Shown piece after piece: positions 5,699-46,765 of a DNA stretch of 64,000 nt (position 1 is the first letter of the stretch; the number at the start of each line of letters is the position of its first letter). The translations under genes and the position numbers were made by a program. Location of the stretch: the NCBI RefSeq assembly GCF_011045215.1, contig NZ_CP049201.1, one strand, 5' to 3'. This stretch comes from Escherichia coli (GTDB lineage: Bacteria > Pseudomonadota > Gammaproteobacteria > Enterobacterales > Enterobacteriaceae). The notes under the pieces were generated by a model, which did no database searches, was not told the origin of the DNA, and saw only the letters and a program-made list of their open reading frames with translations.

Positions 5699-6667
5699 TT
5701 AGACCTGGTCTTTTTTATCGTCAACCAATGGGCTGGCGTCGTGTTCTGCTTCGATCTCTTCAGCAGGAAGCGGGGCGGGTTCAGCGTCTGGCGTAACAAA
5801 GGTTTCGGTAGATACTGCCAGCGGCTGGCCAATTTTCGTGACAGACAGGCTTTCCAGTTGCTCAACCAGATTCACTTTACCCGGTGCAAACAGGTTGATA
5901 ACGGTGGAACCGAGTTTAAAGCGACCCATTTCCTGGCCTTTCAGCAGTGCCACAGAACCGTCGTTTTCCCCGGCAGGCCAGGTCCAGCGCTTGATGATGC
6001 CTTCGCGCGGCGGCGTAATGGTGCCCGCCCAGACAGTCTCAATGCTGCCTACAATCGTCGCACCGACCAGAATCTGCGCCATTGGGCCAAATTCGGTATC
6101 GAACAGGCAGATCACGCGTTCGTTACGGGCAAACAGATTCGGCACGTTCTGAGCCGTGAGATGGTTAACGGAGAAGAGATCGCCCGGCACGTAGATCATC
6201 TCACGCAGAATACCGTTGCACGGCATGTGTACGCGGTGGTAGTCACGCGGGGAGAGGTAAGTGGTCACAAACGTACCGTTGCGGAACAGGTCCGCCATCA
6301 GATAGTTGCCTGCCAGCAGGGCTTCGAGGCTGTAGTTGTGGCCTTTGGCTTGCAGGATTTTATCTTCTTCGATTTTACCCAACTGGCTGATAACGCCATC
6401 GGCAGGCATAACCAGGACATTCGGATCGGTATCGATTGGGCGTACTTCGTCACGCAGCGGACGGACAAAGAATTCGTTAAAGGTGCGGTAGCTGGCGGTG
6501 TCCGGCTTTTGCGCCTCTTTCATGTCGACCTTGTAGTATTTAACGAACAGATCGATAACCAGTTTTGTCAGCCATCCTGCCCGCTTGCTTGCGCCCCAAC
6601 CCGCCAGGCGAGTAAGCCATAGTTTCGGCAGAATGTACTGTAGCGAAAGTTTAAATGAATTTAACAA
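5699..6667 (-). CDS. psd: Phosphatidylserine decarboxylase proenzyme
   Basis: 322-aa ORF recognised as Psd, with LGST self-cleavage motif near the C-terminus (...[11 protein letters not shown]...); immediately upstream of mscM on the same strand. Confidence 0.95.
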
Positions 6668-6763
6668 GGTAGCCTCCAGGCCATTGTTTTGTCGTTCCTG
6701 ATCCGGCCTACATGCCGGATCCTGAAAAAAAGGGGACGATTCTAACGACGGTTAGCTTAATTG

Positions 6764-7816
6764 TCAGTCATCCGTATCAGAAAAGTTTTTACGCGTTTTT
6801 ACCTGCGCCATGCTTTCCAGAATACGGTGATAGTTTTCGAAACGGGTTTCCGCGATTTTCCCTTCCTCAACCGCTTCCCGGATAGCGCAGCCCGGATCGG
6901 TATCGTGTTTGCAATCGCGATATTTACACAGACCTAAGTAGTCATGGAATTCGACAAAACCCTGAGTGATTTGTTCCGGCTCCAGGTGCCAGAGGCCGAA
7001 CTCACGCACACCAGGGGAATCAATCACATCACCGCCGTGCGGGAAGTGATACAGCCGAGCGGCGGTCGTGGTGTGCTGACCAAGCCCCGAGTTGTCAGAG
7101 ACATCGTTGGTCAGGATCTCTTTTTGCAGCCCCAGCAACGCGTTCAGCAGGCTGGATTTACCAACGCCAGACTGCCCGGCAAAAATGCTGATGCGCCCGG
7201 TCAACGCCTCTTCCAGCGGTTTCAGCCCATCCTGAGTATGGCTGGAAACCATCAATACGCGATAACCGATATTGCGGTAGATATCCATCTGCTCGTTGAC
7301 GAATGCCATGCCTTCGTCGTCCAGCAGGTCTATCTTGTTGAGCACAATAATCGGCTCAATCTGCAAGGTTTCGCAGGCCACCAGGTAACGGTCGATAATA
7401 TTGAGCGACAGCTCCGGCAAAATGGCGGAGACAATGACAATCTGGTCGATGTTGGCGGCAATAGGTTTCACGCCGTCGTAGAAATCCGGACGCGTCAACA
7501 CTGAGGTGCGCTCATGCACCGCTTCCACGATCCCTTTGACATTTACGCCTTCCGCCGCCGGTTTACCCGGACGCCAGACTACGCGGTCGCCGGTCACCAG
7601 CGAACGGATGGTACGGCGAATATTGCAGCGGTGAACGTCGCCATCGGCGGATTCCACATCAGCGTGCATACCAAAGCGGCTGATGACGATACCTTCATCA
7701 GGCTCGCCAAACAGATTGTCGTCGTAGTCGGGCTTCTCCTTAGACGTTTTAAGACGACGCTGGTGATTGGCGTTCACGCGGCGCTGCTGGCCTTTGGAGA
7801 GTTTATTTTTACTCAA
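6764..7816 (-). CDS. rsgA: Ribosome small-subunit biogenesis GTPase RsgA (YjeQ)
   Basis: ORF 6764..7849; the 350-aa protein I remember begins [13 protein letters not shown], which corresponds to a TTG start at 7814-7816; G-motifs ([10 protein letters not shown]) present. Confidence 0.85.
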
Positions 7817-9011: not shown

Positions 9012-10149
9012 TCAGGCGTCACGCGGTAACCCTTTTTCAATCACCCGAACCAGACGCTGTTTTTTCGGCAATTGCACTTCGACTATGCACGCATTTCGCC
9101 TCTCGATTTGCTGCGCCATCGCCCACGCTATGTGCTCATCAAGAAGTGGGTGCTCACCTTTGCGACTCTCCAGCGCCGCCAGAATCGTTTCATCCCAGGG
9201 CGCATTGCCTAATGCCACGGCGATATTACGCAGCCAGCGCAGGTGACCTATACGGCGAATCGCCGAACCTTCCGTGACTTTTAAAAACCTCTCTTCGCTC
9301 CAGGCGAATAACTCAATGAGTTCCGGTGCGTGTAGCGGCTTACGCGGGCTGAAATCGTCTTCTGTAGTGAGTTGTGAATAGCGATTCCACGGGCAGATAA
9401 GCTGGCAGTCATCGCAACCGTAAATACGGTTTCCCATTAACGGTCGCAACTCTTCCGGGATCGCCCCTTCCAGTTCGATGGTGAGATAAGAGATACAGCG
9501 GCGAGCATCGACGGTATATGGCTCGACGATGGCACCGGTCGGGCAAATCGTCATACAGGCCACGCATTTGCCGCATCCTTCCTCGACTGGTTGATCCACG
9601 GGCAGCGGAATATCGACCAGCAATTCGCCTAAAAAGAAGAACGAACCGGCCTCGCGATTGAGGATAAGTGAGTGCTTACCTGTCCAGCCGAGCCCAGCTT
9701 TTTCAGCTAACGGGCGCTCGAGAATAGGCGCAGAATCGACAAACGGTCTAAAATTCAGCGAAACACAATGTTGCTGAATCATCTCGCCCAGCTTTTTGAG
9801 TCGGTTGCGCAGAAGTTTGTGATAGTCACGGCCCAGCGCATAACGGCTAACATAGCCGAGTTTGGGGTTTTTCAGCGTGCTGGCAAATGCGGCGTTAGCA
9901 GGAAGGTAATTCATCCGCACGCTGATCACGCGCAGCGTACCGGGCAATAACTCATGGGGGCGAGCGCGCAGCATACCGTGACGTGCCATCCAGTCCATTT
10001 CGCCGTGGTATTGTTTGTCCAGCCATGCTTGCAGTTTGGGCTCGGACTCGCTGAGATCGGTATCGGTAATACCTACCTGCTGAAAGCCCAGTTCCAGCCC
10101 CCACTGTTTAATTTTTTGCGCTAACTGATTGAGATCGAGGGGCTCTGAC

Positions 10150-10151
<2 letters not shown>
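9012..10151 (-). CDS. queG: Epoxyqueuosine reductase QueG (YjeS), cobalamin/4Fe-4S enzyme
   Basis: ORF 9012..10259; 379-aa protein starts MSEPLDLNQLAQKIK at ATG 10149-10151; ferredoxin-type Cys clusters (CGKCVACMTICP, CDDCQLICP). Confidence 0.9.
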
Positions 10152-12130
<1,979 letters not shown>

Positions 12131-12148
12131 CCTTTGAAAGGTGGCGGG

Positions 12149-13486
12149 ATGATGTATCGCATCAGAAATTGGTTGGTAGCGACGTTGCTGCTGCTGTGCG
12201 CGCAGTCGGGTGCCGCGACGCTCTCTGATATTCAGGTTTCTAACGGCAACCAACAGGCGCGGATAACGTTGAGTTTTATTGGCGATCCTGATTATGCGTT
12301 TAGCCATCAAAGCAAACGCACCGTGGCGCTCGATATCAAACAAACGGGCGTGATTCAGGGACTGCCGTTGTTGTTCAGCGGTAATAATCTGGTGAAGGCG
12401 ATTCGCTCCGGAACGCCTAAAGATGCACAAACGCTACGGCTGGTGGTCGATCTTACCGAAAACGGTAAAACCGAAGCGGTGAAGCGGCAGAATGGCAGCA
12501 ATTACACTGTCGTCTTTACGATTAACGCCGATGTGCCGCCACCGCCTCCTCCGCCGCCCGTGGTTGCGAAACGCGTTGAAACGCCTGCGGTTGTCGCACC
12601 GCGCGTCAGCGAACCGGCGCGCAATCCGTTTAAAACGGAAAGTAACCGCACTACGGGTGTTATCAGCAGTAATACGGTAACGCGTCCGGCTGCGCGCGCG
12701 ACGGCTAACACTGGCGATAAAATTATCATCGCTATTGATGCCGGACACGGCGGTCAGGACCCTGGCGCTATCGGCCCCGGTGGTACGCGGGAGAAAAATG
12801 TCACCATCGCCATCGCGCGTAAATTGCGTACTTTGCTCAATGACGATCCGATGTTTAAAGGCGTTTTAACCCGTGACGGGGATTACTTTATCTCGGTGAT
12901 GGGGCGCAGCGATGTGGCACGTAAGCAAAACGCCAATTTCCTCGTGTCGATTCACGCTGATGCCGCACCGAACCGCAGTGCGACTGGCGCTTCCGTATGG
13001 GTGCTCTCTAACCGTCGCGCCAACAGCGAAATGGCCAGCTGGCTGGAGCAGCACGAGAAACAGTCGGAGCTGCTGGGCGGGGCGGGTGATGTGCTGGCGA
13101 ACAGTCAGTCTGACCCCTATTTAAGCCAGGCGGTGCTGGATTTACAGTTCGGTCATTCCCAGCGGGTAGGGTATGATGTAGCGACCAGTATGATCAGTCA
13201 GTTGCAACGCATTGGCGAAATACATAAACGTCGACCAGAACACGCCAGCCTTGGCGTTCTGCGCTCGCCGGATATCCCATCAGTACTGGTCGAAACCGGT
13301 TTTATCAGCAACAACAGCGAAGAACGTTTGCTGGCGAGCGACGATTACCAACAACAGCTGGCAGAAGCCATTTACAAAGGCCTGCGCAATTATTTCCTTG
13401 CGCATCCGATGCAATCTGCGCCGCAGGGTGCAACGGCACAAACTGCCAGTACGGTGACGACGCCAGATCGCACGCTGCCAAACTAA
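12149..13486 (+). CDS. amiB: N-acetylmuramoyl-L-alanine amidase AmiB
   Basis: 445 aa from ATG 12149 ([16 protein letters not shown] signal peptide); AMIN domain, poly-Pro linker, Amidase_3 catalytic domain ([14 protein letters not shown]). Confidence 0.93.
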
Positions 13487-13495
13487 GGACGATTG

Positions 13496-15343
13496 ATGCC
13501 AATTCAGGTCTTACCGCCACAACTGGCGAACCAGATTGCCGCAGGTGAGGTGGTCGAGCGACCTGCGTCGGTAGTCAAAGAACTGGTGGAAAACAGCCTC
13601 GATGCAGGTGCGACGCGTATCGATATTGATATCGAACGCGGTGGGGCGAAACTTATCCGCATTCGTGATAACGGCTGTGGTATCAAAAAAGACGAGCTGG
13701 CGCTGGCGCTGGCGCGTCATGCCACCAGTAAAATCGCCTCTCTGGACGATCTCGAAGCCATTATCAGCCTGGGCTTTCGCGGTGAGGCGCTGGCGAGTAT
13801 CAGTTCGGTTTCCCGCCTGACGCTCACTTCACGCACCGCAGAACAGCAGGAAGCCTGGCAGGCCTATGCCGAAGGGCGCGATATGGACGTGACGGTTAAA
13901 CCGGCGGCGCATCCGGTGGGAACGACGCTGGAGGTACTGGACCTGTTCTACAACACCCCGGCGCGGCGCAAATTCCTGCGCACCGAGAAAACCGAATTTA
14001 ACCATATCGATGAAATCATCCGCCGCATCGCACTGGCGCGTTTCGACGTCACGATCAACCTGTCGCATAACGGCAAAATCGTACGCCAGTACCGCGCGGT
14101 GCCGGAAGGCGGGCAAAAAGAACGGCGCTTAGGCGCGATTTGTGGCACCGCTTTTCTCGAACAAGCGCTGGCGATTGAATGGCAACACGGCGATCTCACG
14201 CTGCGCGGCTGGGTGGCCGATCCAAATCACACCACGCCCGCACTGGCGGAAATTCAGTATTGCTACGTGAATGGTCGCATGATGCGCGATCGCCTGATCA
14301 ATCACGCGATCCGCCAGGCCTGTGAAGACAAACTGGGGGCCGATCAGCAACCTGCATTTGTGTTGTATCTGGAGATCGACCCGCATCAGGTGGACGTCAA
14401 CGTGCACCCCGCCAAACACGAAGTGCGTTTTCATCAGTCGCGTCTGGTGCATGACTTTATCTATCAGGGCGTGCTGAGCGTGCTACAACAGCAACTGGAA
14501 ACGCCGCTACCGCTGGACGATGAACCCCAACCTGCACCGCGTCCCATTCCGGAAAACCGCGTGGCGGCGGGGCGCAATCACTTTGCTGAACCGGCAGTTC
14601 GTGAGCCAGTAGCTCCGCGCTACACTCCTGCGCCAGCATCAGGCAGTCGTCCGGCTGCCCCCTGGCCGAATGCGCAGCCAGGTTACCAGAAACAGCAAGG
14701 TGAAGTGTATCGCCAGCTTTTGCAAACGCCCGCGCCGATGCAAAAACCAAAAGCGCCGGAACCGCAGGAACCTGCACTTGCGGCGAACAGTCAGAGTTTT
14801 GGTCGGGTACTGACTATCGTCCATTCCGACTGTGCGTTGCTGGAGCGCGACGGCAACATTTCACTTTTAGCCTTGCCAGTGGCAGAACGTTGGCTGCGTC
14901 AGGTACAACTGACGCCGGGTGAAGCGCCCGTTTGCGCCCAGCCGTTGCTGATTCCGTTGCGGCTAAAAGTTTCTGGCGAAGAAAAATCGGCATTAGAAAA
15001 AGCGCAGTCTGCCCTGGCGGAATTGGGTATTGATTTCCAGTCAGATGCACAGCATGTGACCATCAGGGCCGTGCCTTTACCCTTACGCCAACAAAATTTA
15101 CAAATCTTGATTCCTGAACTGATAGGCTACCTGGCGAAGCAGTCCGTATTCGAACCTGGCAATATTGCGCAGTGGATTGCACGAAATCTGATGAGCGAAC
15201 ATGCGCAGTGGTCAATGGCACAGGCCATAACCCTGCTGGCGGACGTGGAACGGTTATGTCCGCAACTTGTGAAAACGCCGCCGGGTGGTCTGTTACAATC
15301 TGTTGATTTACATCCGGCGATAAAAGCCCTGAAAGATGAGTGA
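13496..15343 (+). CDS. mutL: DNA mismatch repair protein MutL
   Basis: 615 aa from [23 protein letters not shown]; GHKL ATPase motifs; operon context amiB-mutL-miaA-hfq. Confidence 0.95.
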
Positions 15344-16286
15344 TATCAGTAAGGCGAGCCTGCCTAAGGCGATTTTTTTGATGGGGCCGACGGCCTCCGG
15401 TAAAACGGCGTTAGCCATTGAGCTGCGTAAAATTTTACCAGTAGAGTTGATAAGCGTTGATTCTGCCCTTATTTACAAAGGGATGGATATCGGGACGGCG
15501 AAGCCGAACGCTGAAGAGTTACTCGCCGCGCCGCACCGATTGCTGGATATTCGCGATCCGTCGCAGGCTTACTCGGCTGCTGATTTTCGCCGCGATGCGC
15601 TGGCGGAAATGGCCGATATCACCGCGGCGGGGCGGATCCCACTGTTAGTGGGCGGTACGATGTTGTATTTCAAGGCATTGCTGGAAGGGTTGTCGCCGCT
15701 ACCGTCGGCAGACCCGGAAGTACGGGCCAGAATTGAGCAACAGGCGGCAGAGCAAGGTTGGGAGTCATTGCATCGTCAACTTCAGGAGATCGATCCGGTT
15801 GCGGCAGCAAGGATTCATCCAAATGATCCACAAAGGCTTTCCCGGGCACTGGAAGTTTTTTTCATTTCGGGTAAAACTTTAACGGAACTGACGCAAACGT
15901 CAGGAGACGCTCTACCGTATCAGGTGCATCAGTTCGCCATCGCCCCGGCGAGCCGTGAACTGCTCCATCAACGAATTGAGCAGCGTTTTCATCAGATGTT
16001 GGCTTCAGGTTTTGAAGCAGAAGTCCGGGCGCTTTTTGCCCGAGGAGATTTGCATACGGACTTGCCTTCCATTCGTTGCGTGGGTTATCGCCAGATGTGG
16101 TCTTACCTTGAAGGCGAAATCTCATACGATGAAATGGTTTATCGAGGTGTTTGCGCCACGAGACAGTTGGCGAAGCGGCAGATAACCTGGCTGCGTGGTT
16201 GGGAAGGGGTTCACTGGCTTGACAGTGAAAAACCAGAACAGGCGCGTGACGAAGTATTACAGGTTGTTGGTGCTATCGCAGGCTGA
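15336..16286 (+). CDS. miaA: tRNA dimethylallyltransferase MiaA
   Basis: 316-aa ORF with P-loop (GPTASGKT); overlaps mutL stop by 8 nt. Confidence 0.95.
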
Positions 16287-16359
16287 ATGTGTACAATTGA
16301 GACGTATCGTGCGCAATTTTTTCAGAATCGAAAGGTTCAAAGTACAAATAAGCATATAA

Positions 16360-16680
<321 letters not shown>

Positions 16681-16756
16681 GGTTTCGGGCTGTTTTTTTT
16701 ACACGGGGAGCCAGCGATCCTGCGTTCCCCGCTGATCTATTTAGAGGGTTATACGC

Positions 16757-18037
16757 TTGTTTGACCGTTATGATGCTGGTGAGCAGGCGGTACTGGTACA
16801 CATCTATTTTACGCAAGACAAAGATATGGAAGACCTCCAGGAGTTTGAATCTCTGGTCTCTTCCGCCGGTGTCGAAGCATTGCAGGTGATTACCGGTAGC
16901 CGTAAAGCGCCGCACCCAAAGTATTTTGTAGGTGAAGGTAAAGCAGTTGAAATTGCGGAAGCTGTCAAAGCGACGGGTGCTTCGGTCGTTCTTTTTGACC
17001 ATGCCCTGAGCCCGGCGCAAGAGCGTAACCTGGAGCGTTTGTGCGAGTGTCGTGTTATCGACCGCACCGGCCTTATTTTAGATATTTTCGCCCAACGTGC
17101 GCGTACCCATGAGGGTAAGTTGCAGGTTGAGCTGGCGCAGCTGCGCCATCTGGCTACACGCCTGGTGCGTGGCTGGACCCACCTTGAAAGACAGAAAGGC
17201 GGGATTGGTTTGCGTGGTCCGGGTGAAACCCAGCTCGAAACCGACCGTCGTTTGTTGCGTAATCGCATCGTGCAGATACAGTCGCGCCTGGAAAGAGTTG
17301 AAAAGCAGCGTGAGCAGGGGCGGCAATCGCGTATCAAAGCCGACGTTCCTACTGTTTCGCTGGTGGGATATACCAACGCCGGTAAATCTACCCTTTTCAA
17401 TCGCATCACCGAAGCGCGGGTCTACGCGGCAGACCAGTTGTTTGCCACCCTCGACCCGACGTTGCGGCGTATTGACGTTGCAGATGTCGGTGAAACCGTA
17501 CTTGCAGATACCGTAGGGTTTATTCGCCACCTGCCGCACGATCTGGTGGCAGCATTTAAAGCCACGTTACAAGAGACGCGGCAAGCCACATTGCTGCTGC
17601 ATGTGATTGATGCGGCGGATGTGCGTGTACAAGAAAACATCGAAGCGGTGAATACGGTTCTTGAAGAGATCGACGCTCACGAGATCACAACCCTGCTGGT
17701 GATGAACAAGATCGATATGCTGGAAGATTTCGAACCGCGTATTGATCGGGACGAAGAGAACAAACCGATCCGTGTCTGGCTTTCCGCACAGACCGGAGCG
17801 GGGATACCACAGCTTTTTCAGGCTTTGACGGAGCGGCTTTCCGGCGAGGTGGCGCAGCATACATTGCGTCTGCCACCGCAGGAAGGGCGTCTGAGAAGTC
17901 GTTTTTATCAGCTTCAGGCAATAGAAAAAGAGTGGATGGAGGAGGACGGCAGCGTAAGTCTGCAAGTTCGTATGCCGATCGTTGACTGGCGTCGCCTCTG
18001 TAAACAAGAACCGGCGTTGATCGATTACCTGATCTAA
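16757..18037 (+). CDS. hflX: Ribosome-associated GTPase HflX
   Basis: 426-aa ORF with G-motifs ([21 protein letters not shown]). Confidence 0.95.
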
Positions 18038-18122
18038 CGGCGTAGCGTCTGAAGCGTGGAGTCATATCCTCTGGCGTCGAAAGACAACAGGGATCACCGC
18101 ATAACAAATATGGAGCACAAAC

Positions 18123-19382
18123 ATGGCGTGGAATCAGCCCGGTAATAACGGACAAGACCGCGACCCGTGGGGAAGCAGCAAACCTGGCGGCAACTCTGAG
18201 GGAAATGGAAACAAAGGCGGTCGCGATCAAGGGCCACCTGATTTAGATGATATCTTCCGCAAACTGAGCAAAAAGCTCGGTGGTCTGGGCGGCGGTAAAG
18301 GCACCGGATCTGGCGGTGGCAGTTCATCGCAAGGCCCGCGCCCGCAGCTTGGCGGTCGTGTCGTTACCATCGCAGCGGCAGCGATTGTCATTATCTGGGC
18401 GGCCAGTGGTTTCTATACCATTAAAGAAGCCGAACGTGGCGTGGTAACACGCTTTGGTAAATTCAGCCATCTGGTTGAGCCGGGTCTGAACTGGAAACCG
18501 ACGTTTATCGACGAAGTCAAACCGGTGAACGTGGAAGCCGTGCGTGAACTGGCCGCTTCTGGTGTGATGCTGACGTCGGACGAGAACGTAGTGCGCGTTG
18601 AGATGAACGTGCAGTACCGCGTCACCAATCCGGAAAAATATCTGTATAGCGTGACCAGCCCGGATGACAGCCTGCGTCAGGCTACCGACAGCGCCCTGCG
18701 TGGAGTTATCGGTAAATACACCATGGACCGCATTCTGACGGAAGGTCGTACCGTGATTCGTAGCGATACTCAGCGCGAACTGGAAGAGACTATCCGCCCG
18801 TATGACATGGGTATCACGCTGCTGGACGTCAACTTCCAGGCTGCTCGTCCGCCGGAAGAAGTAAAAGCGGCGTTTGACGATGCGATTGCCGCGCGTGAAA
18901 ACGAACAGCAATACATTCGTGAAGCAGAAGCGTATACCAACGAAGTTCAGCCGCGTGCGAACGGTCAGGCGCAACGTATCCTCGAAGAGGCGCGTGCGTA
19001 CAAGGCCCAGACCATCCTGGAAGCTCAGGGTGAAGTGGCGCGCTTTGCTAAACTTCTGCCGGAATATAAAGCCGCGCCGGAAATTACTCGCGAGCGTCTG
19101 TATATCGAGACGATGGAAAAAGTGTTGGGTAACACCCGCAAAGTGCTGGTTAACGATAAAGGTGGCAACCTGATGGTTCTGCCGTTAGACCAGATGCTGA
19201 AAGGTGGTAACGCCCCTGCGGCGAAGAGCGATAACGGTGCCAGCAATCTGCTGCGTCTGCCGCCAGCCTCTTCCTCCACAACCAGTGGAGCAAGCAACAC
19301 GTCGTCCACCAGTCAGGGCGATATTATGGACCAACGCCGCGCCAACGCGCAGCGTAACGACTACCAGCGTCAGGGGGAATAA
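18123..19382 (+). CDS. hflK: FtsH protease modulator HflK (SPFH/band-7 family)
   Basis: 419-aa ORF; Gly-rich N-terminus, single TM segment, SPFH domain. Confidence 0.95.
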   Translation: MAWNQPGNNGQDRDPWGSSKPGGNSEGNGNKGGRDQGPPDLDDIFRKLSKKLGGLGGGKGTGSGGGSSSQGPRPQLGGRVVTIAAAAIVIIWAASGFYTIKEAERGVVTRFGKFSHLVEPGLNWKPTFIDEVKPVNVEAVRELAASGVMLTSDENVVRVEMNVQYRVTNPEKYLYSVTSPDDSLRQATDSALRGVIGKYTMDRILTEGRTVIRSDTQRELEETIRPYDMGITLLDVNFQAARPPEEVKAAFDDAIAARENEQQYIREAEAYTNEVQPRANGQAQRILEEARAYKAQTILEAQGEVARFAKLLPEYKAAPEITRERLYIETMEKVLGNTRKVLVNDKGGNLMVLPLDQMLKGGNAPAAKSDNGASNLLRLPPASSSTTSGASNTSSTSQGDIMDQRRANAQRNDYQRQGE

Positions 19383-42180: not shown

Positions 42181-42642
<462 letters not shown>

Positions 42643-42663
42643 TTCGTTATTCAACGAGACGTA

Positions 42664-42695
42664 AAAACGCCGACCACTGGTCGGCGTTTTGCTTT
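42664..42695. terminator. Bidirectional intrinsic terminator between rplI and convergent yjfZ
   Basis: Stem CGCCGACCA ... TGGTCGGCG flanked by A-tract (AAAAA) on one side and T-tract (TTTTGCTTTCTATTTTT) on the other. Confidence 0.8.
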
Positions 42696-42712
42696 CTATT
42701 TTTCGTCAGGCA

Positions 42713-43507
42713 TTAATTTCGCAAGTAGATCCATTCACCATTCTCTTGTGTCCATAAGTCAGGATGGTTTGCTGGCGTTAGATACATATGAGCGCAACTG
42801 ATGTCTCGCTCCTGCGGCACTCGCTCAAAACCCAAACCCGAGTAGATTGCTGCTGAACTTGATAAGGAACGCAGACCAATTTTCAAATCATGGGGTAAAT
42901 CAGAATACGCGTTTAGCAATGCAGCAATGATGAATCCGAGGGCATTAGAAACGCCTGTAACAGTGCGAAGTTGGTCGATATAAAGATCGATTGTTGGTAG
43001 TTCAGATGACCAGCAATTAGGCATTTGGGCAGGAAGGGTTACAACGTATCCTATCGTTTGGCCGGTATAGTCTGGAGTACCATAACCAGGTCCCAAAACA
43101 ACCTCGTGTATTGTGTATCTACTGTTGGGTTCGAAGGATTCGACATCTTGCAATAAATATTTCAGTTCTGCGGTTAACCGCGCACCCGCGTAAGCTTTAT
43201 TGTATTTCTGGGCGTGAATATTATCTAATGTAGCTTCATGGTTCCATCCAAAAGAATTATCACCATTCATTGTTATTCCATCGTAAGCATTACACCTCGT
43301 CGCTAACTTATTGAATGCTTGCCAGTCTGAGAGATCTAGTTTGTGGATCTCAACAGTACGTCTGCCATCGCAATTATGATCTCTTCCACGATTTGAAAGT
43401 AATGTAGCGCGTGCGTATTGATGAAATTTTAATTTTACTGGTTTGTCGGTGGACGAAAAACGAGATAAATATGCAGGAAATGAATAAATAGTGGTTGGTA
43501 ATGTCAT
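42713..43507 (-). CDS. yjfZ: Uncharacterised protein YjfZ (DUF2686)
   Basis: 264-aa ORF in AT-rich DNA; recognised as YjfZ; no informative motifs. Confidence 0.85.
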   Translation of the reverse strand: MTLPTTIYSFPAYLSRFSSTDKPVKLKFHQYARATLLSNRGRDHNCDGRRTVEIHKLDLSDWQAFNKLATRCNAYDGITMNGDNSFGWNHEATLDNIHAQKYNKAYAGARLTAELKYLLQDVESFEPNSRYTIHEVVLGPGYGTPDYTGQTIGYVVTLPAQMPNCWSSELPTIDLYIDQLRTVTGVSNALGFIIAALLNAYSDLPHDLKIGLRSLSSSAAIYSGLGFERVPQERDISCAHMYLTPANHPDLWTQENGEWIYLRN

Positions 43508-43728
43508 TGTAATGTTACCTGTTTAATATTTTTACAAATATCGCAGCTGAATGTTCAAAGAAAAAGAATTGATATTAATAAAAATAAGTTTGTTTTCTGA
43601 AGTGGTGAAAATAGCGGATGGTGAAAGATATTAATATCAAAAATCGCTCATTATGGATATAACGATGCACCAGGGGAGAAAATGACTTCCACGCCTTACA
43701 CCGTACATTCTTGTTGTGCGGTATGTAA

Positions 43729-44078
43729 TTATTCTACGCTGTCGGTATTGGTGTATTCGTTAATCAGCAGGTTAACCAGCCACAAAAAGCCATTGAGAAA
43801 ATTATTGATTTTACATGGAATTATTATATTGCCAATCCTTGGTTTTTAAAAATTGTGCATAGTGAAAATCAAAGTAAAGGTGTGCATTATGCAAAATCAC
43901 AGCGTCTCTTAGAAATTACCCATGCGCACTTGCAGTTAATGGAATCCTTATTGGATGAAGGGAAGAAACACAATATTTTTAAGCCAGATATCGACCCATT
44001 TCAGGTGAATATTAATATTGCTGCGCTTGGGGGATATTATTTGATCAACCAGCATACGCTTGGCCTGGTTTATCCGGT
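43729..44078 (+). pseudogene. ytfA: TetR-family regulator fragment (C-terminal ligand-binding region only), apparently interrupted at its 3' end by the IS element
   Basis: Open frame from 43729 (GTG 43855 is the first listed start) encodes ...[30 protein letters not shown]...[16 protein letters not shown]..., resembling a TetR C-terminal domain; no N-terminal HTH is encoded upstream; from about 44080 the frame reads antisense through IS sequence. Confidence 0.6.
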
Positions 44079-44130
44079 GCGCCGTAAAACCCCGTCCTTC
44101 AGGGCGGGGATATACGGCGCGGTTTTCCAC

Positions 44131-44558
44131 CTAACCAGGTGTTTGCTGTTGTTCAATGTATTGACGGATGGCGGATATTGGCGCACCTCCGCAGCTACTG
44201 GCAAAATAGCCAGGACTCCACAAAACGCCTTTGTAGTAATACCTGACTGCAATATCTGGTCGATCTCGTCGCAGTAACCTACCCGATACGCCTTTGAGGC
44301 TGTTTACCAGACTGGATATCGCCAGTTTGGGAGGATAGTTAATTAACAAACGTGATCTGGTTCGCCATCCATTTCAACCAGTTCAGCTTCAAAATCAGCA
44401 CATACCTTTGAAAAGTAAGTGCGTAGTTTTTCTGTCGCGTCATGGTCAAAAATCTGGCGTCGGTATCTGGTGACAAAGACCAGGTGAACATGCATCAGGA
44501 AAACACAATGCCTTCCACGCCGGATATCGGTTTCTTTTTTCACAGACCAAAGTATCAT
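44131..44558 (-). pseudogene. tnpA: IS200/IS605 TnpA (Y1 HUH transposase), disrupted by a frameshift
   Basis: Two adjacent ORFs in different frames (44343..44558 and 44131..44349) together give a ~143-aa TnpA-like protein: ...HCVFLMHVHLVFVTRYRRQIF...EPDHV / [26 protein letters not shown]...[26 protein letters not shown]; the break is inside the HUH motif. Confidence 0.8.
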
Positions 44559-44565
44559 TTGGCCT

Positions 44566-45774
44566 GTGAAACGACTACAGGCATTTAAATTCCAGTTAAG
44601 ACCCGGTGGTCAACAGGAGCGTGAAATGAGGCGCTTCGCAGGCGCATGTCGTTTCGTTTTCAATCGTGCTCTGGCACGTCAGAATGAGAATCATGAGGCC
44701 GGTAATAAATACATCCCTTACGGGAAAATGGCTTCCTGGCTGGTTGAGTGGAAAAATGCCACTGAAACGCAATGGCTTAAAGATGCCCCGTCACAGCCAT
44801 TGCAACAGTCACTGAAAGACCTTGAGCGGGCTTACAAAAACTTCTTCCGGAAGCGGGCTGCTTTTCCCCGATTCAAAAAGCGGGGACAGAATGATGCATT
44901 CCGCTACCCGCAGGGCGTTAAGCTCGATCAGGAAAACAGTCGTATTTTTCTGCCGAAACTTGGCTGGATGCGCTACCGGAATAGCCGTCAGGTCACGGGT
45001 GTTGTGAAAAATGTCACTGTCAGCCAGTCCTGCGGTAAGTGGTACATCAGTATTCAGACTGAAAATGAAGTATCAACTCCGGTTCACCCTTCAGCATTAA
45101 TGGTCGGACTGGATGCTGGCGTGGCTAAACTCGCCACGCTGTCAGATGGCACAGTCTTTGGGCCTGTAAACAGTTTTCAGAAAAACCAGAAGACGCTGGC
45201 GAGACTTCAGCGACAGTTAAGCCGCAAGGTCAAATTCAGCAACAACTGGCAGAAGCAGAAACGCAAAATACAGCGACTGCATTCCTGTATCGCAAATATC
45301 CGCAGGGACTACCTTCACAAAGTCACAACGACCGTCAGCAAAAACCACGCAATGATAGTCATTGAGGATTTGAAGGTCAGCAACATGTCAAAGTCAGCAG
45401 CGGGTACGGTCAGCCAGCCGGGGCGCAATGTCCGGGCAAAATCAGGTTTAAACCGTTCGATACTGGATCAGAGCTGGTATGAAATGCGCCGCCAGCTTGA
45501 GTACAAGCAGCTCTGGCGTGGCGGTCAGGTGCTTGCTGTTCCGCCAGCGTACACAAGCCAGCGTTGCGCGTGCTGTGGTCATACAGCGAAAGAAAATCGC
45601 CTGTCACAAAGTAAATTCAGATGCCAGGCATGTGGATATACAGCGAACGCTGATGTAAATGGCGCTCGTAACATTTTAGCGGCGGGGCACGCCGTTCTTG
45701 CCTGTGGAGAGATGGTGCAGTCAGGCCGCCCGTTGAAGCAGGAACCCACCGAAATGATTCAGGCGACAGCCTGA
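44566..45774 (+). CDS. tnpB: TnpB (OrfB) of an IS200/IS605-family element; RuvC-like RNA-guided endonuclease family
   Basis: 402-aa ORF from GTG 44566; N-terminus [13 protein letters not shown]...[12 protein letters not shown] typical of TnpB; RuvC-I (VGLDAGV), RuvC-II (IVIEDLKV), zinc finger (CACCGH...CQACGY) and RuvC-III ([10 protein letters not shown]) all present; an alternative ATG at 44626 with an AGGAG SD would give 382 aa. Confidence 0.9.
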
Positions 45775-45908
45775 ACGTAGCAGGGATCCACGTCCTTCAG
45801 GGCGTGGAGGATGTCAACACATCAGTATGGTTTCACCCCAGGCACTGGAAGCCAGACGTAAGGTCATCAAAGAGACAATCCTTAGCTGGCTTTTGGTTGA
45901 CCCTTCAT

Positions 45909-46547
45909 CTACCGCGCACGAATAAAACTGCCATCCGGCTGGCGGGTGAACAGGACCTGTTGATTATTCCCCGTATCAATGGTTAAGCCCGTCACCACGC
46001 CGCTGGCGTTCTGGCGGATTTTCACCATCTGCCCGTTTTGCAAATTACTCAGCGGCTTACCCGCGCCTTCTACCTGCGCCATTGCATAGACATCGGTAGC
46101 GGGCAGTCCGTGGTCGCGGAACAGCTGCGCCATCGTTTTACCGGGTTCGACACGGTAAGAGCGCCATTGATTATCAATTCCGCTATCTGGCTGGAATGGT
46201 TGCGTTTGGGTAGTTTGCGGCTGTTCTTCTGGCTGGCCTTCCTGTATAGGTTCTGGAGCGACCGGAGCCACCTGATCAGGATCATTTTGTGGTGTGACTA
46301 ATTGCGCCCGCAGCTGTTCTTCTGTCGGCGGTTGTGATTGTGACTGAATATCTAACTGCGCTTCACGCGTCACCACCGGCGCGTTGAGCGTATCATCAGA
46401 TGGAAGCAGAAATCCGACCACCAATACAATGGCGGCAATAATGATCCCCCGACGATGCATCGGCGGCAGCGGGTCCATGAAGCGAAAATTGTCCGGCGCG
46501 TGCCAGACTTTCTCCAGGGTTGGTTTTAGTTCAAAGCGCCCGGGCAT
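45909..46547 (-). CDS. ytfB: Cell-division protein YtfB (OapA/LysM-like domain)
   Basis: 212 aa from [21 protein letters not shown]; TM anchor, Pro/Gln-rich linker, C-terminal OapA domain. Confidence 0.88.
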
Positions 46548-46765
46548 GGTTTCCTCCTGCTCCGCGTCTTGTTCCTCAATCATAGCCTATGAATAAGCTA
46601 ACGCTATGATGTCCGTGGTAAACCCGCCTTTATTATATTCATACGGGATATTGCTATTGTTTCTTTTTCCCCGTGATTTGTCATCATTCCCGCGACAAAG
46701 TTTTACCCAAAGAAGTGTGGCTGATATGCTGCCCGCTACTTTTATACCCTAAGAAAGGAAATACG

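Follow-up and report, generated by a model that had tools for sequence, protein, structure and literature searches.

Probable stepwise decay of the TetR-family gene ytfA and its interruption by IS609 in Escherichia coli

A stretch of 64,000 nucleotides from Escherichia coli contig NZ_CP049201.1 (assembly GCF_011045215.1), hereafter called the window, carries a non-functional wreck of the TetR-family gene ytfA, which with a probability of roughly 0.93 arose through at least three separate events. Two deletions would have removed the 5' part of the gene together with a neighbouring catabolic operon, and insertion of IS609 would then have split what was left. At the level of primary sequence, the deletions and their joints and the insertion site could all be demonstrated, as could the absence of the DNA-binding domain and the promoter and the inactivation of the IS609 tnpA gene. 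Both TetR fragments, IS609 and a 105-bp relic of a reductase gene are best treated as parts of a single decayed locus.

Public records already contain annotations of this wreck, an ordinary pseudogene into which a known IS has inserted. In strains A30 and O157:H7 C1-057, which carry the same insertion, RefSeq reports two partial TetR/AcrR pseudogene fragments flanking an 'IS200/IS605-like element IS609', and the equivalent of the 5' piece is labelled 'incomplete; missing N-terminus and C-terminus' in both A30 and O157. To this existing annotation are added the reconstruction of two deletions with its reductase relic, the counts across genomes and the finding that tnpA is dead. In the literature, no paper dedicated to the decay of ytfA or to IS609 at ytfA was found; the publications touching on the subject were a survey of the TetR family, a cell-division screen using the 108-aa YtfA, a promoter SELEX table and a paper that names an IS609 TnpB among the orthologues purified.

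Structure of the ytfA remnant

Megablast searches against 5426 complete E. coli genomes placed region 43500-46000 between rplI/yjfZ and ytfB/fklB (Table 1). The top match to this 2.5-kb region among these genomes was strain A30, isolated from a baboon (99.4%), and none was higher.

The open frame 43729-44277 is preceded in frame by a TAA stop at 43726-43728, exactly where the initial annotation had placed it. Translation of 43729-44074 matched Pfam profile TetR_C_29 (E=1.6e-24) with residues 18-114, covering profile positions 1-97 of 119. The frame had been said to encode only sequence resembling a TetR C-terminal domain; as regards domains this was correct, TetR_C_29 being the sole TetR match, but the first 17 codons are not TetR sequence. 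They derive mostly from the antisense reductase relic and are open by chance, and 51 nt separate the frame start at 43729 from the first codon of TetR origin. Alignment with the intact gene begins at 43779, the third base of codon 82, and the first complete codon, 83, is at 43780. The 5' piece thus defined holds codons 83-180 and the first base of codon 181 (of 215), i.e. sequence of the ligand-binding/dimerisation domain only, while the 3' piece holds bases 2-3 of codon 181, codons 182-215 and the TAA stop at 45923-45925. When rejoined, the two pieces gave an unbroken translation of residues 83-215, ending in ...DPSSTAHE and the stop, with 96.9% DNA identity over 418 nt to the intact 215-aa gene that strain clone D i14 carries at this locus. 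Because of this identity and shared position, a chance resemblance was rejected.

Neither 43729-44074 nor 43855-44277 gave a Pfam match to TetR_N, and residues 1-82 of the intact orthologue, compared by tblastn with the whole 64-kb window, yielded nothing below E=0.05, the best matches being at unrelated positions. Re-examination revealed no ORF containing a helix-turn-helix (HTH) either, in agreement with the earlier report of its absence. The remnant consequently lacks the N-terminal HTH (TetR_N, PF00440) of functional TetR/AcrR regulators. It also lacks a complete C-terminal domain in a single frame, the remainder of TetR_C_29 lying 1744 bp downstream, past the IS. It is nevertheless orthologous, in sequence and in position, to an intact TetR/AcrR member and can be regarded as a pseudogene of a family member.

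The gene had also been described as truncated by the insertion, its 5' part extending to 44078. The frame does leave ytfA at the IS, but 'split' is the better term because the tail of the gene survives downstream of the element, and the joint was located at 44074/44075, 4 nt earlier than proposed. In insertion-free strains, 34 more codons follow the insertion site, up to a TAA that overlaps ytfB; the overlap between the ytfA tail and the convergent ytfB measures 17 nt (45909-45925) in the window, as it does in intact alleles.

The 140-aa ORF starts at GTG 43855, which is the start of the old 108-aa YtfA of K-12 and corresponds to residue 108 of the intact protein. It comprises 73 ytfA codons followed by the left end of IS609 and sequence antisense to tnpA (44075-44277), and TetR_C_29 was matched by its residues 2-85 only. 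Since it crosses the ytfA/IS609 joint into IS sequence, it is a chimera, as had been recognized; it constitutes a meaningless read-through that should not be called a gene.

Table 1. Features of the decayed ytfA locus (positions in the window)
Feature	Position	Strand	Evidence
yjfZ (DUF2686), left neighbour	42713..43507	-	Pfam DUF2686, E=4e-155
Reductase (SDR) relic	43671..43775	-	blastn to NIST0056; tblastn with SDR protein
ytfA remnant, 5' piece	43780..44074	+	Pfam TetR_C_29; DNA alignment to intact alleles
Chimeric 140-aa ORF	43855..44277	+	ORF listing; ytfA/IS joint 44074/44075
TTATC, insertion target	44070..44074	+	Comparison of four IS609 copies
IS609, 1744 bp	44075..45818	.	Empty sites and three other copies
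tnpA (Y1/HUH transposase), frameshifted	44131..44558	-	Alignment to strain A30 tnpA; Pfam Y1_Tnp
tnpB/insQ, 402 aa	44566..45774	+	Pfam HTH_OrfB_IS605, OrfB_IS605, Cas12f1-like_TNB
ytfA remnant, 3' piece	45819..45925	+	99% identity to intact alleles
ytfB	45909-46583	-	3' end overlapped by ytfA tail

Intact alleles and the divergent operon

The intact orthologue from clone D i14 (WP_001298021.1) is a 215-aa TetR/AcrR protein in which Pfam recognized TetR_N (residues 19-61) and TetR_C_29 (residues 83-201). Intact alleles from clone D i14, Nissle 1917 and NIST0056 (WP_001298021.1/WP_001317442.1) share 96-98% DNA identity with the remnant over codons 83-215. Unlike the remnant, the intact regulator possesses residues 1-82 with TetR_N, its own promoter region and a divergent six-gene operon, all of which are deleted in the window. 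AcrR and EnvR, which had been suggested for comparison, belong to the same TetR superfamily but are not close relatives: neither appeared among the 60 best solved-structure matches listed for the intact orthologue, the nearest of which was 3npi (E=1e-16), and the C-terminal domain of the remnant is of the TetR_C_29 type. Both are unnecessary as comparators because a true intact orthologue exists, and WP_001298021.1 is the appropriate reference.

In clone D i14, a 10.1-kb segment separates the rplI terminator from ytfA codon 82 and contains a HipA-type toxin-antitoxin pair as well as the six-gene operon divergent from ytfA. This catabolic operon encodes an MFS transporter, an FAD oxidoreductase, a CoA transferase, an enoyl-CoA hydratase, a sugar-phosphate isomerase/epimerase-like protein and a 3-ketoacyl-ACP reductase (SDR). 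It is uncharacterised, and is also present in NIST0056. TetR regulators usually repress a divergently transcribed neighbour operon, and by analogy the product of intact ytfA would have repressed these six genes. In clone D i14 (locus 9685-19010) the HipA-type toxin pair is frameshifted and stands in place of yjfZ.

In strains such as NIST0056, the gene order is rplI-yjfZ-(six-gene operon)-ytfA-ytfB with an intact ytfA, yjfZ being marked as frameshifted in NIST0056. That yjfZ might be a cassette which replaced the operon was considered and rejected, because yjfZ and the operon lie side by side, together with an intact ytfA, in NIST0056 and HCP17S3_I4. The latter strain (locus 6127-6824) displays a further state of decay, with an IS1A at the position of the NIST0056 MFS transporter gene and a frameshifted gene for the FAD protein. 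In strains EF7-18-58 and CH425 the entire locus belongs to a deeply divergent class of alleles, with a ytfA of 212 aa that is ~79-84% identical to the window remnant and a ytfB that has been given another name in the annotation; old allelic lineages are thus maintained at this locus.

Two deletions and a reductase relic

BLAST comparison of the window with NIST0056 resolved three collinear blocks. The first (42600-43675) covers the end of rplI, yjfZ and 168 bp of spacer, the second (43671-43775) is antisense to the reductase gene and corresponds to its nucleotides 89-193, and the third (43779-44074) consists of ytfA sequence starting in codon 82. Like MG1655, the window therefore represents the NIST0056 arrangement minus ~7.3 kb and minus 544 bp. 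The left deletion joint displays a 5-bp microhomology (CAGGG, 43671-43675), a feature typical of illegitimate recombination.

The relic between the two joints is 105 bp long and corresponds to codons ~30-64 of the reductase, with two in-frame stops. It showed 81.9% identity to NIST0056 over 105 nt by blastn and was also recovered by tblastn with the SDR protein (E=2.7e-7); among the operon genes sought in the window by tblastn, it was the only one to leave a trace. The relic (82%) is far more divergent than the adjoining ytfA remnant (96-98%). This excess might, loosely, be accounted for if the relic came from a divergent donor allele that was not sampled, or if the ytfA part has recombined with intact alleles.

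On this basis, the ancestral state would have been a 215-aa TetR regulator encoded divergently from the six-gene catabolic operon. One deletion of ~7.3 kb would have extended from the spacer upstream of yjfZ into the reductase gene, and another of 544 bp would have begun in the 5' end of the reductase gene, crossed the divergent promoter region and ended at ytfA codon 82. The two would jointly have eliminated the operon, the promoter and the DNA-binding domain, leaving the relic and codons 83-215, which is the state found in MG1655.

In MG1655, ytfA (b4205) is a RefSeq pseudogene located between yjfZ and ytfB as in the window, and it shares with the window allele the identical 5' breakpoint (codon 82/83), the reductase relic, the spacer and the frame. 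Its IS609 site is empty (TTATC/ACATCAG) and its remnant forms a continuous stretch of 133 codons, whereas the window allele is split by IS609. Three residue differences (D96N, N129T and L156F) separate the window remnant from that of MG1655. The alignment with MG1655 suggested in the initial annotation thus located the 5' breakpoint, and it established that the 3' end of ytfA in insertion-free strains differs from that in the window.

The IS609 copy

The element inserted 3' of TTATC inside ytfA codon 181 is named IS609 in RefSeq and belongs to the IS200/IS605 family. It displays the attributes of this family, namely a TnpA gene, TnpB domains, subterminal hairpins and a fixed 5' target that is not duplicated. 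The 1744-bp element accounts exactly for the difference between filled and empty sites, target duplication being absent, and the empty site reads GGTTTATC/ACATCAGTATGG in both MG1655 and clone D i14. The left flank YTTATC was common to four independent IS609 copies (at ytfA, ydcO, yedK and yeaR), as were the ends of the element, and TTATC is presumably the TAM of TnpB. The subterminal hairpins, at 44079-44120 (left) and 45787-45808 (right), are conserved in the three other copies; as DNA folds they were predicted at -18.1 and -10.5 kcal/mol, respectively, with z about -4 relative to shuffled sequences.

By comparison with the intact 143-aa tnpA of strain A30, the window copy has undergone a 4-bp deletion between 44349 and 44350 which converts HVHLL into HVC-stop. 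The gene is split into ORFs of 71 and 72 aa, over which the Pfam Y1_Tnp profile is distributed as positions 1-53 and 55-121. The deletion destroys the HUH motif, so this IS609 copy would be unable to excise itself. The same 4-bp deletion was detected in 62 complete E. coli genomes, O145:H28 strains included. The tnpB ORF of 402 aa is intact and is predicted to encode an RNA-guided endonuclease, its Pfam domains being given in Table 1. The IS609 copy next to ydcO in K-12 shows 97.7% identity over 1.74 kb and has the same divergent tnpA/tnpB arrangement, hairpins and TTATC flank. It lies at another locus, and its tnpA is annotated with an internal stop, in contrast to the 4-bp deletion in the HUH motif of the window copy.

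Judging from what is known of the family, IS609 would have entered codon 181 by single-strand 'peel and paste', splitting the remnant, and the 4-bp deletion would have destroyed the HUH motif of the window copy at a later stage.

Distribution of ytfA alleles

The HTH-encoding part of ytfA, which marks the intact state, was present in 3143 of the 5426 complete E. coli genomes, and the truncated joint in 2226 (coverage of at least 80%). IS609 occupied the ytfA site in 1699 genomes, and all those sampled carried the truncated allele. An IS609 insertion in an HTH-bearing ytfA was encountered in none of the 5426 genomes, as searched at a coverage of at least 80% with a chimeric query made of 151 nt specific to the intact allele, 296 shared nt and 226 nt of IS.

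Decay and expression of the remnant

Eight truncated alleles were compared. One carried a premature stop (W103*, strain B20127) and another a 3-nt in-frame deletion (MS1685), and the polymorphic codons comprised ~16 nonsynonymous and ~15 synonymous cases. The pN/pS ratio relative to an intact allele reached ~0.2 (A30 and MS1685), whereas two intact alleles gave 0.09 when compared with each other. Within the locus, divergence was greatest in the spacer and relic (identity down to 90%) and in the ytfA 5' piece (down to 93%), while identity stayed at ~96.5-99% for yjfZ, ytfB and IS609. In this sample of eight, such a pattern points to relaxed constraint on the remnant. The frame is still open in the window and in MG1655, and over residues 83-215 the MG1655 remnant encodes the same protein sequence as the intact NIST0056 allele; signs of decay are thus not shared by all alleles.

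Regarding expression, no in-frame ATG, GTG or TTG occurs between 43729 and 43855, and no Shine-Dalgarno-like sequence was seen before GTG 43855 when the sequence was read by eye. A promoter scan of 43400-44200 did not exceed the number of hits in shuffled sequence, and none of its hits was a plus-strand site preceding the remnant. In K-12, the yjfZ-ytfA spacer was bound by RNA polymerase holoenzyme in vitro and is listed with an RNA polymerase/H-NS site (PMC3946193), so some transcription is possible. Taken as a whole, the remnant is probably not expressed.

It could be argued that the HTH-less C-terminal domain is still made and functional, as the 108-aa YtfA in K-12 and as the 140-aa chimera in the window, perhaps by soaking up ligand or by poisoning the dimer of another TetR protein. 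The frame open from 43855, the unaltered protein sequence of the MG1655 remnant and the RNA polymerase/H-NS site in the spacer would all fit such a role. However, IS609 interrupts the remnant in 1699 of ~2226 truncated alleles, a stop and an in-frame deletion were found among just eight sampled alleles with a raised pN/pS, and the sole available start is a GTG with no Shine-Dalgarno-like sequence seen upstream. In addition, the ORF is devoid of the first 25 TetR_C_29 residues, and in the window also of the last 22 profile positions, and RefSeq treats the remnant as a pseudogene. A functional fragment appears very unlikely in view of these data, and a non-functional wreck is the preferred reading.

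Order of events

Truncation most likely preceded the insertion of IS609, because no genome was found to carry IS609 in an intact ytfA; this is an argument from allele distribution and not from a phylogeny. The distribution, together with the occurrence in MG1655 b4205 of the same 5' breakpoint without the IS, agrees with the earlier view that ytfA was a remnant before the IS event. Excision of IS200/IS605 elements is seamless, and truncated alleles without the IS, such as those of MG1655 and strain 64, could accordingly be products of excision instead of alleles that never hosted the element.

Seamless excision is also what would allow truncation and insertion to be merged into one event, in which IS609 itself caused the 5' loss of ytfA by an IS-mediated adjacent deletion and K-12-type alleles were later freed of the IS; the fact that every sampled IS609-bearing allele is truncated would then follow. 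Nevertheless, the deletion joints (43671-43675 and 43775-43779) are 300-400 bp away from the left end of the IS, with intact ytfA sequence in between, and the microhomology at one of them is of the kind left by illegitimate recombination. Moreover, IS200/IS605 elements move as single-stranded circles and are not known to generate adjacent deletions. A single event is accordingly hard to credit, and separate deletions followed by insertion remain the favoured course. That the short form was the original one, the 215-aa form having arisen by fusion with an HTH module, has nothing more in its favour than that both forms are common and is refuted by the decayed piece of the intact form's reductase neighbour kept in the window, which is explicable only by deletion from the long arrangement; the short form also begins mid-codon of the long form.

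A possible role of TnpB in the retention of IS609

On the plus strand, the Rfam families HgcC (23.5 bits, E=0.012; gathering score 50) and sot0042 matched 45647-45830 below threshold. This stretch runs from the 3' end of tnpB across the right-end hairpin and 12 nt into the ytfA tail, which is the position expected for a TnpB guide RNA. As to a curated RNA family for such a guide RNA, Rfam returned sub-threshold hits only.

A tentative possibility, less probable than not in our estimation, is that TnpB, with a right-end guide RNA whose guide is supplied by the ytfA tail, cuts IS-free alleles, IS609 then being restored by recombination. The ~16-20 nt with which the ytfA tail begins (ACATCAGTATGGTTTC...) may serve as the guide. 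Preceded by TTATC, this guide would match the IS-free ytfA site exactly, giving TTATC+ACATCAGTATGGTTTCACCC as putative target, and the alleles cut may be those that have lost IS609 or incoming IS-free ones. This proposal concerns the IS and not ytfA as a regulator. If true, retention could help to explain the presence of IS609 in about three quarters (1699/~2226) of truncated alleles, even where tnpA is dead.

Conclusion

Three states of the locus co-exist in E. coli, i.e. intact, truncated, and truncated with IS609, and they could serve as a lineage marker. The locus provides a tidy example of the stepwise loss of an accessory catabolic operon along with its regulator. It also represents a natural test bed for TnpB-guided retention of IS609, to which it is suited because natural strains frequently have the site filled and frequently have it empty.
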